From IMG/VR virus record IMGVR_UViG_3300022670_000174, positions 1 through 43,302 of that record: a stretch of DNA of 43,302 nt. One strand, given 5' to 3'. The DNA comes from a virus (lineage: Duplodnaviria; Caudoviricetes). Below are positions 8,865 through 39,642 of this stretch, one piece after another. The translations under genes were made by a program, and so were the position numbers. The notes under the pieces were generated by a model, which did not search any database, had not been told where the DNA came from, and saw only the letters and a list, made by a program, of their open reading frames with translations. Each line of letters begins with the position of its first letter. The stretch's first letter is position 1.

Positions 8865-9107
8865 TTGAAATATTTACACAAAGGTATGGAGAGCGATAAA
8901 ACAATATCGCTCATCCTTAAACTAACAAAAATTACTAGTGATAATCTAAAAGCGGCAATATATGATCACTTTGTAAAAGATTATTCTATCAGCCAGAGTT
9001 CAGCAATAAATTGTGTTCCTCAGCCAAAATTAACAAACGCTGTAAAGAGATTGAATGAAATTGCTGAAATAGCTAATAAAATAAGTCATGCTAAATATAC
9101 TAGTTAA
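8865..9107 (+). CDS. PapB/FocB-like transcription regulator
   Basis: LILKLTKITSDNLKAAIYDHFVKDYS...KLTNAVKRL parallels the PapB-family HTH pattern; TTG start after AGGA. Confidence 0.6.
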   Translation: MKYLHKGMESDKTISLILKLTKITSDNLKAAIYDHFVKDYSISQSSAINCVPQPKLTNAVKRLNEIAEIANKISHAKYTS

Positions 9108-10848: not shown

Positions 10849-11442
10849 ATGGACGTACCATTAGAAGTAACAGTAACTATTGTTTATACACAGGCGGCTA
10901 TAATTGAAAACGGCAGCATAGGCGAACTATTGGTTAATCACGTAAACGATGCCTTATACGTTAACAGGCTGTCAGAAACAAAACGTTGCCCACGCTCAAG
11001 GCGAGAAGGTTGCCAAATAACAACGCGAACTTTAAAGCTTGATAAAGAATATGTTTTACAATCAGAATTCCCGACTGACTGGGTAAGGGCCAGCAGCATT
11101 GTAATAACGGCAGCATGGCACCTTGACGAAGCTTGGGCAAACGAAGCGAGCGACGTTAGTGATTCGGATATACTTGTAATTATCACCGCTGACAGCGAGA
11201 CTCAGGGCGAAACAAAATTTAACGGTTGGGCCTATGGTGGCGTTATCTGGCTTAATGGTTGGAAGTCTGTAAACACTGAACTTTTCCCGCATGAATTCGC
11301 GCACATAGCCGGGGCAAAACATACCGATGAACCAGATAGATTAATGAATCCTATTGTTACTACTGACAAAATGACATATCAGACCATGAGGTCTATAATT
11401 GAGTATTTTCGTGATCATGGTATAGTTACACCTAACCCATAA
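10849..11442 (+). CDS. Zinc metalloprotease, metzincin type
   Basis: HEFAHIAGAKH (HExxHxxGxxH) followed by a Met-turn (RLMNP); start reassigned to ATG 10849 (GAGG RBS). Confidence 0.8.
   Translation: MDVPLEVTVTIVYTQAAIIENGSIGELLVNHVNDALYVNRLSETKRCPRSRREGCQITTRTLKLDKEYVLQSEFPTDWVRASSIVITAAWHLDEAWANEASDVSDSDILVIITADSETQGETKFNGWAYGGVIWLNGWKSVNTELFPHEFAHIAGAKHTDEPDRLMNPIVTTDKMTYQTMRSIIEYFRDHGIVTPNP
11399..11426 (+). promoter_or_regulatory. Putative promoter of the late/lysis-structural operon, inside the 3' end of the protease gene
   Basis: TTGAGT(11399-11404)-16 bp-TATAGT(11421-11426) with extended -10 TG. Confidence 0.55.
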
Positions 11443-11457
11443 ACCAACGGAGTTCTC

Positions 11458-11526
11458 ATGGCTGCAAACGACGATAAAGACAAACCACCAATTCCACCAC
11501 CGCCTCCACCACCTGGCGGCGGTTAA
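11458..11526 (+). CDS. 22-aa polyproline peptide, not in ORF track
   Basis: GGAG RBS at 11449-11452; MAANDDKDKPPIPPPPPPPGGG*; prolines use mixed codons (CCA/CCG/CCT); stop 1 nt before the next ATG. Confidence 0.75.
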   Translation: MAANDDKDKPPIPPPPPPPGGG

Positions 11527-11527
11527 A

Positions 11528-12046
11528 ATGGCATTGTTAGTTATATTGGCGTTATGGTTTTTCGTTATAGCTTTATTTGCTGATCGAAGATATCGTTACA
11601 GCGCCATTATTTTACTTGTTGCCAGTGCTTGTAACGCCATCATGATTAGTGTTGGAATATTCGAACCTATGTCATATATAGAAGCTAAACAAGTATTAAT
11701 TAAATTTGATGGGGTTGTCGCTGTAGTATTAATTTCATTCTTAATCAAATACAAAAATGCAAGACGATTGTCAATTTTAGCAGTATTTGCGGTGTTTTGT
11801 CATGCAATGGTAATACATCATTTAGAAATAGGGAAGTCTGGTTTTTTCTACACGTACTATGATCAGTTAATTGTAACTATTAGTGTTCTACAAATGTTGG
11901 TGACTAAAGATGGACTTGTTAACGCTTACAAAAATGCTATTGACACATTTAATCGAAAATCAATACAAATACGAATCTGCCATATTTATTTTATATGTTA
12001 TCGTGAAGATTGGCTTGTACATCTACAAAGTGGAGCTCGCACGTGA
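11528..12046 (+). CDS. Polytopic membrane protein (~5 TM)
   Basis: Multiple hydrophobic segments; positioned for translational coupling to the polyproline ORF. Confidence 0.75.
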   Translation: MALLVILALWFFVIALFADRRYRYSAIILLVASACNAIMISVGIFEPMSYIEAKQVLIKFDGVVAVVLISFLIKYKNARRLSILAVFAVFCHAMVIHHLEIGKSGFFYTYYDQLIVTISVLQMLVTKDGLVNAYKNAIDTFNRKSIQIRICHIYFICYREDWLVHLQSGART

Positions 12047-12116
12047 ACAACTTCGTAACAACGGATTTGGCGAATGGTACCGTAAAGTCAGGCGGCGTTT
12101 TGGCCCTTGGAAGTAG
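11910..12116 (+). CDS. Overlapping single-TM protein (alternative frame)
   Basis: SAIFILYVIVKIGLYIY hydrophobic segment plus basic tail; lies entirely over neighbouring genes; weak RBS. Confidence 0.35.
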   Translation: MDLLTLTKMLLTHLIENQYKYESAIFILYVIVKIGLYIYKVELAREQLRNNGFGEWYRKVRRRFGPWK

Positions 12117-12348
12117 CATATTATCATTCGCTGATCAATACGCGGTAGGTATAGGAATATTAATAGCTTTTTTAACACTTGTAACGGGATGGATTTTTAA
12201 GTGGATAGACTATCGCCGTGATCGTAGAATCGCAGAAAACACAAAACGCATAGTAGATATTGAAAAAGTCTATAAAAAAGAAAAAGAAATTAACATTAAA
12301 CTTGAACGAAAACTAACAGCGATCGAAGAACGTCAAGAGAAGAGGTAA
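12043..12348 (+). CDS. Putative holin
   Basis: GTG start overlapping the upstream stop (GTGA) with GGAG RBS; AVGIGILIAFLTLVTGWIFKW TM followed by a highly charged tail, like HP1-type small holins. Confidence 0.6.
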   Translation: MNNFVTTDLANGTVKSGGVLALGSSILSFADQYAVGIGILIAFLTLVTGWIFKWIDYRRDRRIAENTKRIVDIEKVYKKEKEINIKLERKLTAIEERQEKR

Positions 12349-12350
12349 TC

Positions 12351-12644
12351 ATGTCATTATTCACAAGGTTAGCTGGCACTTCGGAACCTAAAATAGCTAT
12401 CCATTTATTTCACTCCCTTCTTGATGAGTCTAAACAATCTCGGATCAATGGTAATGATGCTGCTACAATAATGGATTTATCAGCGGATGAAAAAACCGAT
12501 GCAATTACTATTATTCAAAAATTATCGACAGAAAATCAGTATAGACGGTTTTTTAATTATCTCTGTCTTGGTGAACTCGGTGTCAAAACACCACATGACT
12601 ATACTGATGAGGCGCTGTTCTGGATAGCATTGGATAGCTTCTGA
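12351..12644 (+). CDS. Hypothetical protein
   Basis: 97 aa, GAGG RBS, stop overlaps the next start. Confidence 0.7.
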   Translation: MSLFTRLAGTSEPKIAIHLFHSLLDESKQSRINGNDAATIMDLSADEKTDAITIIQKLSTENQYRRFFNYLCLGELGVKTPHDYTDEALFWIALDSF

Positions 12645-14425
12645 TGGCTGATGTCAATTTTAAAGTCGTAAGAGTAGCGTTAAATACATCTACAGGCACC
12701 CAAGACATCACGATAAGTGGATTTGGCACCCCCAAAGCAGCCATATTTTACAGTGATGGTGTCTTAACAGACGATACTATAACAAATTCAACTCGCAATA
12801 GCGTTGGTTATACAGATGGCACGAACGAGGCAGTAGTTGCAAACTTCTCTCTTAATGGATTTTCTGCGAGTGACACATCAAGATTACACAGAACTGATAG
12901 TGTTATTTTGGTCATATCCCAAACAGCGGAAACTGGAAGAGCAAATTTTGATAGCTTTATAACGGACGGCGTTAGAATTGACATCACAGATGCACCACCA
13001 ACCGCTAATTTTGTTACGGTCATACTCATTAATGGTGATGATGTATCAGACGTAAAGGTTGAAACAAAGCAATTAACTACTACGTCAACTGTAATAACTA
13101 CGGTCGGTTTTGAGTCTTCGTTGGTTTTCCTTAACTCAGTGGGAATTAATGCAATAGATGGTTCAGTAGGTGGACAGGCTTTAATGTCCAATGGAATCGC
13201 CGTTAATGATGGTTCAGATTCAAATTTTGGCATATTACAATTTGACCAAGACGCACAAGGGACTTCAAATACAGGTCAATTTACGTCAAATACGGATTCA
13301 GTAGGACAATTTTTCAACAATTCACTTACTTGGGGTGGGGATGTAAATACCTACACTTCAACAGGGTTCACAATATCAACAAGCGCATCCCCTGGAGATG
13401 ATTTTGTTTCATATCTAGCTTTAAAATTTACGAATTCACCGCTAGTTGATGTATCTATCGTAGATTCGCCTACAGCAACCGGTGATAAAAGTTTTGGTTC
13501 TACGGCTTCCCAACCTGATTTTAATTTGATGATAACGGGTAACAGCACTGCATTAGACACAAATACAAGTGGGGTTGGGTTTTCTACTTTCGTCGCAGAT
13601 GCAACAAATCAGTTCGGCAATAGTTACTCAATGGAAGATGCAGCAGCTACAATGGTAGTAGATAGTATTTCTGCAAGTGGTAACTTAGTCCAATTATTTA
13701 ATGGTGTTAAAGAGTTTGAAGCAAGTTTTACAAACTTTACATCATCAGGCGCGGATTTTAATTTCTCTACTGTTGATGGCACAGCGAGAAAGTGGATATC
13801 TTTATTTATTGGTTCAGGAGCAGCATCAACAGGCGTAACAGTTAATGATCTAAGTCAATCGCAAACAATCGATCAACCAGCATTAACGCAGCACAACATT
13901 TTGGCAATAAACGATTTATCAAACGCACAAACAATCGATCAAGTTACGTTGACTCAGGTGCATATTTTATCCGTTAATAGCCTTGATGTTTCTCAAACAA
14001 TAGACCAGTTGAATTTAACGCAACAAAACGTTTTATCTGTCAATGATGCGTCGCAAAACCAAACAATCGACCAAATAAACCTAACACAGCACAATATTTT
14101 ATCAGTTGACGAGTTATTGCAATCACAAGGATTAGATGTTGTCACGTTATCAACAATAACTAGTGCTTTATTATCGATCGTAAACTTATCACAAAATCAA
14201 ACTATCGATGCTAATCAATTGGTACAGCATAGCGTTTTAAGCGTAAATGACTTATCACAAGCTCAATTAATTGATGTTGTAAATTTTGCCGGTATAGTGG
14301 TTGGATTTCTTGAGGGTGAATTATCTATCGTTTATGCGTATAATAACCAAACAATGATAACAAATGCTTTAACTGGCGAAACTAGCATAATTGAAAACTT
14401 AACGGGCGAGAGTGAAATATTATGA
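12644..14425 (+). CDS. Putative virion fibre/appendage protein with C-terminal 22-aa repeats
   Basis: S/T/G/N-rich beta-type N-terminal ~390 aa, then ~7 repeats of approximate consensus LSVNDLSQxQTIDQxxLTQxNI. Confidence 0.6.
   Translation: MADVNFKVVRVALNTSTGTQDITISGFGTPKAAIFYSDGVLTDDTITNSTRNSVGYTDGTNEAVVANFSLNGFSASDTSRLHRTDSVILVISQTAETGRANFDSFITDGVRIDITDAPPTANFVTVILINGDDVSDVKVETKQLTTTSTVITTVGFESSLVFLNSVGINAIDGSVGGQALMSNGIAVNDGSDSNFGILQFDQDAQGTSNTGQFTSNTDSVGQFFNNSLTWGGDVNTYTSTGFTISTSASPGDDFVSYLALKFTNSPLVDVSIVDSPTATGDKSFGSTASQPDFNLMITGNSTALDTNTSGVGFSTFVADATNQFGNSYSMEDAAATMVVDSISASGNLVQLFNGVKEFEASFTNFTSSGADFNFSTVDGTARKWISLFIGSGAASTGVTVNDLSQSQTIDQPALTQHNILAINDLSNAQTIDQVTLTQVHILSVNSLDVSQTIDQLNLTQQNVLSVNDASQNQTIDQINLTQHNILSVDELLQSQGLDVVTLSTITSALLSIVNLSQNQTIDANQLVQHSVLSVNDLSQAQLIDVVNFAGIVVGFLEGELSIVYAYNNQTMITNALTGETSIIENLTGESEIL
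13841..14290 (+). repeat. ~7 degenerate 66-nt (22-aa) coding repeats
   Basis: CAAACAAT(C/A)GA(T/C)CA recurs at 66-nt intervals (13862, 13928, 13994, 14060). Confidence 0.85.
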
Positions 14426-14787
14426 GCAAATCAATACCATTAACGAATATAGACTTAATGCTTGCCATTGTTGAAGGAACTGACTTGCATGTTAATTCAG
14501 CAGAACCAACAACGTTCACAGAGGCAACAACCACTTTTCAATTGGCTAGCTTCTCATTAAGCTCACCTTACACGAAAGCGAATGGTGATGTTTCAGGACG
14601 CAAAAACACTTTAGCTGCACAACTTGCAGCACTTATCGATAATACTGGCACAGCAACACATGTTTCTGTCACCACACTGACCGGAACAGTGCTTGAACTA
14701 GTAACCACTACGGTTAGTCAGTTGCTCACATCAGGCGGCACCGTGGACACATCAGCATTCGATCACGAAATTGAACAGGCGACTTAA
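14422..14787 (+). CDS. Small beta-rich virion protein (putative fibre subunit)
   Basis: LHVNSAEP, NGDVSGRK, GTATH motifs; Thr-rich; ATGA overlap with the repeat protein. Confidence 0.55.
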   Translation: MSKSIPLTNIDLMLAIVEGTDLHVNSAEPTTFTEATTTFQLASFSLSSPYTKANGDVSGRKNTLAAQLAALIDNTGTATHVSVTTLTGTVLELVTTTVSQLLTSGGTVDTSAFDHEIEQAT

Positions 14788-38638: not shown

Positions 38639-38988
38639 CAAAACTTAGCGGTACTTATTATAATAAAGAAGAGTTTACTTATTATTCTAAGCGATACAAT
38701 AAACGCATTACTGTTTTGTTTGATGAAAAGTCTGATGGTGCTAGCGGGGCTTTTGATATTGATTCTGATTCTTGGTGGGTTCATGACACAGCTAAAAAAT
38801 ACCAAGTGTGGGATGATGGTTCAAAGATAACGAATTGGCAAGCTAGTTTTGTTATTTATGACTTACTGTTAAAGGAAGATTATTATATCAGGGCTAGAAC
38901 TTGGTTTATCACTACATTAGCATGGGGTTCAATCGTTAAGAAAAACCCCCTTGCTAAGATACCTGAAAACTTACATAAATATAATTAA
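38635..38988 (+). CDS. DUF1353-like protein
   Basis: SDGAS...WWVHD motif; after the tail fibre gene. Confidence 0.6.
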   Translation: MTKLSGTYYNKEEFTYYSKRYNKRITVLFDEKSDGASGAFDIDSDSWWVHDTAKKYQVWDDGSKITNWQASFVIYDLLLKEDYYIRARTWFITTLAWGSIVKKNPLAKIPENLHKYN

Positions 38989-39227
38989 AGTTCGTTAGCC
39001 GTGTCGTTAAGCGTCGAACACATTTTGTTATATAATTCCCTTAATTCCTTCGTGGGAAACTTCCTTTTTATTGAACCCACAGAATATACGTCGCACATGC
39101 CTTTTATCGACCCGTTAACCAAGGCATCGTTAGCATCTGCACCCTTAGCGATTATGCTTCCTAATCCTGCACAGCCTGATATAAACAATACAAATAACAA
39201 CATCATTACTTTTTTCACATTAACCAC
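38985..39227 (-). CDS. Lipoprotein (possible spanin component)
   Basis: Basic N-terminus, hydrophobic core, lipobox ISGC; directly downstream of the lysin candidate. Confidence 0.65.
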   Translation of the reverse strand: MVNVKKVMMLLFVLFISGCAGLGSIIAKGADANDALVNGSIKGMCDVYSVGSIKRKFPTKELRELYNKMCSTLNDTANEL

Positions 39228-39228
39228 C

Positions 39229-39642
39229 TTAATTCCTAATAATTTGAAGTTTAAATTCTTTACCGTTCAATTCATCCATTAAGTCATTAAACGTCACACC
39301 ACTATGTAAAACTGCTCTAACTCCTTTTAGAACGCCAAATTTGTTGCCAACAATAATACAACCTTGAGTATGGCTAACAAGATTCCCTTTATGAATTAAA
39401 ATGTGTGTTCTTGTTGCCGGACCATGAAGTCTCACGCCCTTATCGTTTAGCGAGTGCAAATAGTACGTTTCACCAAAACGAGGGCTTACAATCGGTTTGA
39501 CGGCGTAATTACCAGCGGGAACACATGAAATATTTGGCTTATTGTTTAGCCAGGGTCTTTCGAGTGTATAACAAACAAATCGATCGCCATCGTAAAGCTT
39601 TCCCCATGTTCCTACATTATCGCTAAATGTAATTAGTTTCAT
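39229..39642 (-). CDS. DUF5675 family protein, candidate endolysin (YkuD/L,D-transpeptidase-like His/Cys motif)
   Basis: T.GKLY...CYTLERPW..N...ISCVPAGNY and RTHILIHKGN...TQGCIIVG. Confidence 0.78.
   Translation of the reverse strand: MKLITFSDNVGTWGKLYDGDRFVCYTLERPWLNNKPNISCVPAGNYAVKPIVSPRFGETYYLHSLNDKGVRLHGPATRTHILIHKGNLVSHTQGCIIVGNKFGVLKGVRAVLHSGVTFNDLMDELNGKEFKLQIIRN

Follow-up and report, generated by a model that had tools for sequence, protein, structure and literature searches.

Comparison of sequences points to a three-gene cassette conserved in marine phages, which is composed of a micro-ORF, a gene of a predicted 5-TM protein and a holin-like gene, and which was studied here in the window, i.e., the whole 43,302-nucleotide stretch of phage DNA that was analyzed. 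The cassette is real and conserved, and apparently undescribed. The first-pass annotation of this DNA knew of no phage system of such form, and a literature search, the coverage of which mostly stops short of subscription papers, likewise found no published description. The timing of lysis sets phage yield, and few holin regulators are known; to our knowledge, none of the holin regulators compared here has a dedicated micropeptide. Two genes of the cassette are unnamed and its anatomy is fixed over at least 33 divergent versions, and in the best reading it would represent a novel form of holin regulation. Look-alikes of the cassette sit in cultured phages, which brings the question within reach of simple genetics.

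Phage Genome and Collection of Homologues

The record is complete, with direct terminal repeats at its ends, and has a GC content of 38%. Replication and recombination genes are followed in the window by terminase, portal, head and tail genes, and no integrase was found among the 62 window proteins scanned. The host is probably a marine gammaproteobacterium, since among cultured phages Vibrio phage 1.210.O has the closest terminase (70%) and a Colwellia MAG contains one relative of the cassette.

Single-sequence and word-based searches with the 5-TM protein returned the protein itself or nothing, and a search of viral contigs with the holin-like protein gave nothing. A phmmer search of 1.84 billion representatives yielded 86 homologues of the 5-TM protein (26–45% identity), and 68 near-full-length homologues were aligned with the window protein (alignment A3, 69 sequences). 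With a 16-sequence core (A4), 20 viral, 59 metagenome and 2 genome loci were retrieved, the nearest being 40–43% identical to the window protein; since the YDELI and FAxxCHxM motifs were the criterion of selection, the set leans to the family core. Sixty-six of 82 loci (the window and duplicates counted) contained the 5′ end of the gene with at least 100 nt upstream and were eligible, and 16 were dropped. The eligible loci gave 52 distinct peptides after identical copies were taken out and three picks were corrected by hand; L236, where the automatic pick was wrong, was omitted, and it too carries a micro-ORF. A thinned set comprised 33 representatives with less than 60% identity. Searching the whole records of 36 relatives of the terminase or of neighbouring genes added nothing to the profile, as the 6 sequences obtained were part of it. 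A scan with a poly-Pro DNA pattern was set aside, as most of its 120 loci were frames that had arisen by chance and lacked a coupled multi-TM gene. In L029 and L085 an unrelated 20-aa ORF, with a Lys run and eight Pro at its end, is separated by 2 nt from a long ORF, which in L029 has 335 aa.

The Micro-ORF and Its Conservation

The micro-ORF of the window phage (11458–11526, + strand) encodes 22 aa, MAANDDKDKPPIPPPPPPPGGG, from the ATG at 11458 to the stop codon that ends at 11526, and is preceded by the Shine-Dalgarno (SD) sequence GGAG (11449–11452, + strand). The peptide contains nine Pro, including a run of seven, encoded by six CCA, two CCT and one CCG; the GC content of the micro-ORF is 55% vs. 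38% for the genome, and its run of at least four Pro is the only one across the six frames of the window. The stop codon is separated by 1 nt from the start of the 172-aa 5-TM gene. The GGAG, the prolines with their mixed codons, the high GC content and the 1-nt gap had all been described at first pass and were verified in the sequence. In the family register discussed below, the window peptide has Ala2, Lys9 and Pro10 and no early Gly, and continues into a lineage-specific poly-Pro/Gly tail.

An SD-led micro-ORF abuts the start of the 5-TM gene in 66 of 66 eligible loci. The check proposed in the first-pass annotation, to inspect the 100 bp upstream of homologues for short Pro-rich ORFs, was thus answered in its first half, whereas the Pro-rich character did not hold, PP being missing from 29 of the 52 homologous peptides. 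The peptides are 11–46 aa long. When the upstream DNA was base-shuffled, any such ORF appeared in a mean of 3.7 loci vs. 52 observed among 52, and a hydrophilic SD-led ORF in a mean of 0.33 (maximum 2) vs. 51 observed. The micro-ORF is usually missed by annotation, and it is unannotated in the records of Vibrio phage 1.210.O and Klebsiella phage JD001.

Conservation is concentrated at the N-terminus and is very low beyond residue 10. Residue 2 is Ala in 30 peptides, Pro in 13, Ser in 4, Gly in 2 and Thr, Val or Phe in one each; it is small in 51/52 peptides as compared with 13/51 5-TM proteins, 4/45 holin-like proteins and 21/35 window genes. Methionine aminopeptidase removes Met before a small residue 2. 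Gly occurs within positions 2–7 in 47/52 peptides, and Lys stands at position 8 in 28 and at position 9 in 28. Pro10 is found in 37/52, vs. a shuffle mean of 8.5 and maximum of 18. The thinned set of 33 keeps the small residue 2 in 32 and Pro10 in 21. Beyond this register the tail varies freely in length (1–36) and charge (−8 to +12), being poly-Pro in the window phage and Lys-, Asp/Glu- or repeat-rich in relatives. Residues 2–10 themselves range in charge from −2 to +5, and the YDEL motif of the 5-TM protein does not change in step, across loci that were collected by that motif. No signal sequence or hydrophobic leader was found in the peptides.

That the micro-ORF is selected as a peptide, as had been suggested from its proline codons and GC content, is borne out by the kept N-terminal motif and by a bias that acts on amino acids rather than on RNA. 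In the peptide codons T has a frequency of 4% at position 1, 7% at position 2 and 31% at four-fold sites, the last being 36% in the 5-TM genes; since T is avoided at positions 1 and 2 and tolerated at four-fold sites, selection acts on the amino acids, and an explanation of the micro-ORF composition at the RNA level was ruled out by the same pattern. Fourteen peptide pairs differ by 48 synonymous and 74 non-synonymous codons, and the six closest by 11 and 7; judged from these codons, the peptide is constrained yet fast-evolving.

Proline Run and Junction Hairpin

PP is absent also from 16 of the 33 representatives under 60% identity. Among all 52 peptides PPP occurs in six and a run of at least four Pro in three, and three peptides have no Pro, the examples being MATRKGGKKRK (L238) and MASRGKGKKRK (L247). 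As far as aligned peptides can tell, the proline run is a variable tail and not a conserved core. At the junction of the window cassette a hairpin is predicted (11499–11523, + strand; −14.6 kcal/mol), in which the Pro codons pair with Gly codons and hide the SD-like GGCGGT of the 5-TM gene. It is the strongest of the 52, it follows from any Pro-then-Gly coding, and 52% of 400 synonymous recodings are equally stable. When the 43-nt junction was folded throughout the family, a hairpin of −8 kcal/mol or lower was obtained in 2/52 loci, with a median of −0.7.

The first-pass annotation had read the prolines as a stall sensor that ties lysis or late gene expression to EF-P or Pro-tRNA of the host. 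Its appeal lies in the run of seven Pro and the PPG of the window phage, in strong XPP/PPX motifs of 8/52 peptides, and in the hairpin, which a ribosome on the Pro codons would open. A stall sensor, however, would depend on stalling motifs that are conserved and on an output that is fixed, and as neither is present it is disfavoured: strong motifs are missing from 44/52 peptides, to which the counts for PP and for Pro-free peptides are added, and the hairpin is neither conserved nor tuned by codon choice. The EF-P sensor thus fails as a mechanism of the family because polyproline is not conserved, and we leave it only the slimmest of chances. A side effect of EF-P on the window phage alone could exist.

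The Predicted 5-TM Membrane Protein

The 172-aa protein (11528–12046, + strand) is predicted to be 5-TM on the basis of its 86 homologues, alignment A3 and an AlphaFold2 model, in which five helices and a long C-terminal helix are seen (pLDDT 93). In the model of a second subfamily the helices are arranged similarly. The charges of the loops alternate, giving a predicted N-out/C-in topology. Of the polar residues conserved among the 69 members, D61 is kept in 57, C91 in 51, H92 in 60, Y108 in 58, Y111 in 65, D112 in 46, E113 in 60 and Q122 in 63; H92 is replaced by Asn in 7/69, E113 by Gln in the window phage, and no polar residue is invariant. In the predicted topology these residues face the outward half. 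Since none is invariant and the window phage has Gln113, a binding surface would suit them better than a catalytic site.

No member of the 69 matches PHROGs, PADLOC or NCBIfam, and none has a Pfam match above the curated cut-off (four single matches, E 0.002 or worse). The best hit among solved structures is a designed bundle (Z 10.2, rmsd 3.9, 121 aligned), otherwise generic bundles were obtained, and Foldseek gave no match with E below 0.001. WcaD, the top named Atlas match (0.95), was not accepted, with only 145 shared features and 29 of 30 matches unnamed; for the second subfamily all named Atlas matches were under 0.85.

Upstream of the cassette, an HExxH metallopeptidase-like gene (10849–11442, + strand; Pfam Peptidase_M10 under the cut-off) is found in the window. 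Neighbours could be read upstream in 39 of the 52 loci, and HExxH occurs in one of the 39, that of the window; the putative metalloprotease is therefore placed by gene order as a neighbour outside the cassette. The second inference of the first-pass annotation, a peptide precursor handled by the membrane protein and/or the metalloprotease, thus stands in part: selection on the N-terminal motif fits a peptide product that works with the membrane protein, while the metalloprotease and catalysis find no backing in the single HExxH and in the lack of an invariant catalytic residue. In an enzymatic form of this inference, cleavage and export of the peptide would fall to the 5-TM protein or the metalloprotease, after the manner of AgrB and AgrD. 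Conserved Cys91-His92 and Asp/Glu of the 5-TM protein would agree with it, and cleavage might take place at the fixed Lys-Pro register. Cys91, His92 and Glu113 are nevertheless all variable, no AgrB or protease family match was found among the 69 members, and the peptides have no amphipathic leader, so that we judge cleavage and export very unlikely.

The Holin-Like Gene and Neighbouring Genes

The third gene (12043–12348, + strand) encodes 101 aa from a GTG start that overlaps the stop codon of the 5-TM gene by 4 nt (GTGA), an overlap that had been noted before and was verified. Its product matches PHROG 20 and 4237 (“holin”; E 2e-6 and 2e-5), and combines a weakly hydrophobic segment at the N-terminus with one strong TM segment and a coiled-coil-like C-terminal tail; it may be a holin of the pinholin type. 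The gene is conserved as a family and starts at −4 over the stop of the 5-TM gene in 43/52 loci. Matches to holins in PHROGs are found for 3/45 members and for 42/45 there are none; Pfam gives 2/45, at a non-significant E of 0.004. The third-gene profile was run against sequences of solved structures and only coiled-coil noise was returned. In L201 (616–1407) the third gene extends to 263 aa before a terminase-like gene, which may be a read-through, a fusion or an assembly error.

Downstream of the cassette the window contains unnamed proteins and then terminase, with no endolysin, and in relatives it is mostly virion-like or terminase genes, not endolysin, that follow. Between the cassette and terminase lies a pair at 12644–14787, coding for a 593-aa protein (about six short repeats near the C-terminus) and then a conserved 121-aa protein with 10 related loci; neither has a family match. 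The genes immediately upstream (n = 39) are NinG in 8 loci, M15 peptidases in 4 (one under the cut-off), amidases in 3, DUF5675 in 2, GTA holin in 2 and RusA in 1, with no match in 19; endolysin-like or holin genes thus stand there in 11/39. In L223, L245 and others a GTA_holin_3TM gene lies directly 5′ of the cassette promoter, which gives a second holin to some carriers.

A DUF5675 protein (39229–39642, − strand; Pfam E 1e-25), a candidate endolysin of this phage, is encoded 27 kb from the cassette on the opposite strand; in 38985–39642 (− strand) a small lipoprotein-like gene comes after its gene. In L211 a gene that looks like this small one is found immediately 5′ of the cassette, and therefore the lysis functions of the window phage seem to be split between two operons. 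The cluster of a membrane protein and a holin that was first proposed for the window is retained as to the coupled holin-like gene; no endolysin lies downstream and the candidate is distant.

These surroundings also bear on a reading in which lysis timing is not involved and one of the two proteins, 5-TM or third, acts as a membrane toxin or a superinfection-exclusion factor, with the peptide as antidote or cofactor and a promoter of host type. Such a promoter, a sigma-70-type extended −10, could fire early, the small-first coupled order resembles toxin-antitoxin pairs, the cassette is often apart from endolysin, and the holin matches are weak. Against it, PADLOC recognizes 0/69 members, the cassette heads virion genes or adjoins lysis genes, and the order of the three genes is kept throughout, and we regard it as rather improbable.

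Promoter and Translational Coupling

The extended −10 motif TG-n-TATAGT (11418–11426, + strand), the predicted transcript start motif, matches the consensus in 9/12 positions with TG present and ends 31 nt before the ATG. A promoter at 11399–11426 had been proposed at first pass. Its extended −10 part is conserved: TGnTAnnnT was found upstream in 42/47 homologous loci (shuffles: mean 3.6, maximum 10), and in 38 of the 42 carriers it ends 26–35 nt before the ATG of the micro-ORF. The consensus match as such does not single out the site, since it is one of 15 such matches vs. 16.2 expected. A PapB-like transcription regulator (8865–9107; PHROG 10566, Pfam under the cut-off) is a candidate controller of this promoter.

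The leader SD is stronger than that of the 5-TM gene in 50/52 loci, with medians of −5.9 and −1.3 kcal/mol. The 5-TM gene had been said to have no clear RBS of its own; this is true of the relatives and wrong for the window copy, in which the SD-like GGCGGT (11518–11523) forms a duplex of −5.7 kcal/mol as compared with −6.1 for the leader. The gap between the leader stop and the start of the 5-TM gene ranges from −7 to +19 and lies within −4 to +6 in 45/52. Since the leader SD is the stronger one in nearly all loci and the junction is unstructured in the family, translational coupling is the likely route to the 5-TM gene.

The same SD asymmetry and tight stop-start spacing would be expected if the micro-ORF were a pure translational leader, in which the peptide has no role and an RBS followed by hard-to-translate Lys, Asp/Glu, Pro and Gly codons throttles the ribosomes that go downstream. 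The composition of the peptides (29% Lys, 16% Pro and 8% Gly, with hydrophobic residues and Cys nearly absent) and the loss of conservation past residue 10 agree with it, and Pro10 lies at a fixed distance from the start, as in arrest peptides. Between Pro10 and the stop there are, however, 1–36 codons, and conserved RNA structure is lacking (2/52), so that attenuation would be left with no fixed target; the near-absolute small residue 2 is likewise unnecessary for coupling. We consider a pure leader unlikely, though it deserves serious attention.

Look-Alike Cassettes in Other Phages

The order of a micro-ORF, a multi-TM gene of 140–185 aa and a holin-like or coiled-coil-TM gene is also present in Vibrio phage 1.210.O. 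It was seen in 6 loci, picked by hydropathy from 64 loci related by terminase or neighbouring genes, as well as in Edwardsiella phage PEi21 (through a BFVD row) and Klebsiella phage JD001. In PEi21 and JD001 it stands back to back with genes of lysozyme-type endolysins. The PEi21 5-TM protein matches 77 phage records, of which, beyond PEi21, the JD001 locus was examined and among which is an Escherichia phage. The top BFVD rows are uncharacterised phage proteins of 139–178 aa (E 0.002 or worse).

Homology of the look-alike 5-TM proteins to the window family is, on sequence grounds, unproven. The window protein scored 4.2 bits against profile A2, where shuffles reach 8.2; hhalign of the A3 family with look-alike 5-TM proteins gave probabilities of 15% and 2.5%; and the A3 profile found L136 and L127 at 12–13 bits, the others (7 of 9) being not significant. 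The third-gene profile scored 12.6 bits with the PEi21 third gene and 8.7 bits with that of JD001. The JD001 and L127 peptides have a bulky residue 2, so the N-terminal motif with its small residue 2 is a property of the A3 family. Some of these micro-ORFs are built of repeats and look like a multiplied short motif, with four repeats in L127 (3867–3948), three in PEi21 (L274: 27644–27769) and two in JD001 (L275: about 1880–1996).

Proposed Mechanism

The explanation that we favour, although we give it slightly less than an even chance, is that of a holin regulator tuned by a peptide. The constant companion of the peptide is the 5-TM protein, the constant companion of which is the holin-like protein, and this leads to the proposal. 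The leader would deliver ribosomes to the 5-TM gene; its peptide would lose the initiator Met, residue 2 being small, and would act through its first ~9 residues, the tail being free, as a partner of the 5-TM protein; the latter would restrain the holin-like protein and in this way the timing of lysis would be set. A leader that serves coupling only would need no fixed register, and a peptide product with a working N-terminus and a free tail fits best. The high variability of the peptide, the 42/45 third genes with no PHROG holin match and the rarity of endolysin downstream are counted against this explanation, as are the separate GTA-type holin of 2/39 relatives and the failure to detect homology with ArrA (see below).

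The main weakness is one of topology. The peptide has no signal sequence and the conserved polar residues of the 5-TM protein are predicted to be outward, so contact between the two would require either exit of the peptide from the cytoplasm or another binding site. Release of the peptide at lysis would solve this conflict between a cytoplasmic peptide and an outward surface. In a more far-reaching version, which seems to us improbable, the Met-less peptide is a signal between infected cells that is produced in large amounts from the strong leader, is spilled at lysis (or carried by virions), binds the outward pocket of the 5-TM protein of infected neighbours and delays or triggers the holin-like protein there. 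If true, it would mean peptide-based, density-dependent timing of lysis in phages of Gram-negative bacteria, which is categorically new and has possibly spread from marine phages to those of Edwardsiella and Klebsiella.

Comparison with Known Systems

The lysis-inhibition locus of ICP1 contains the antiholin ArrA together with the holin TeaA and gp139 (PMC7182436), and ArrA is the closest precedent in function for the role proposed here. In our sequence and hydropathy analysis the locus resembles the cassette in a multi-TM protein of ~150 aa beside a TM-plus-coiled-coil gene, an extended −10 motif and occurrence in vibriophages. Unlike in the cassette, gp139 comes first, so the order is reversed, the holin is GTA_holin_3TM, and no micro-ORF was found in 4/4 ArrA loci examined. 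ArrA scored at most 3.9 bits with the HMM of the 5-TM family, and hhalign gave 11 vs. a shuffled maximum of 23.5, for a 4-sequence ArrA profile and families that are both hydrophobic and divergent. An unannotated 150-aa ArrA homologue was noticed in L279 (about 892–1345 of NC_020843.1), with the gp139–arrA order of ICP1.

In phage T4 the antiholin RI acts on the holin T, and it would be alike, if the proposal for the cassette holds, as a holin regulator with an outward-facing sensing part (10.1101/2025.11.12.688109; PMC13577005). RI has one TM/signal segment, T has a large periplasmic domain and no peptide gene is mentioned (10.1101/2025.11.12.688109; PMC13577005), and the signal is DNA according to the title of a paper cited in PMC13577005. 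Pinholins of phage 21 and LambdaSo can need extra membrane factors, e.g., Lcc6, which differs from the 5-TM protein by its 65 aa, one TM and location elsewhere (10.1101/2024.01.23.576932). The third gene is like pinholins in its two N-terminal hydrophobic segments (one weak) and its length of ~90–120 aa, and unlike them in its long coiled-coil-like tail and weak holin matches.

Salmonella mgtL and mgtP are leader ORFs with Pro codons, and like the micro-ORF they are short and open a transcript in which a membrane-protein gene comes next. In the cassette, in contrast, neither Pro runs nor leader RNA structure is conserved, and the leader abuts the next start codon. Genes of small peptides also stay next to those of their dedicated partners in AgrD with AgrB and AgrC and in the arbitrium pair AimP and AimR. 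Compared with Agr, the cassette has no amphipathic leader, nearly no ring-forming Cys and no kinase, and its hosts are probably Gram-negative; compared with arbitrium, it has no signal-bearing pro-peptide and no TPR receptor, its partner being a 5-TM protein that is coupled to a holin-like gene.
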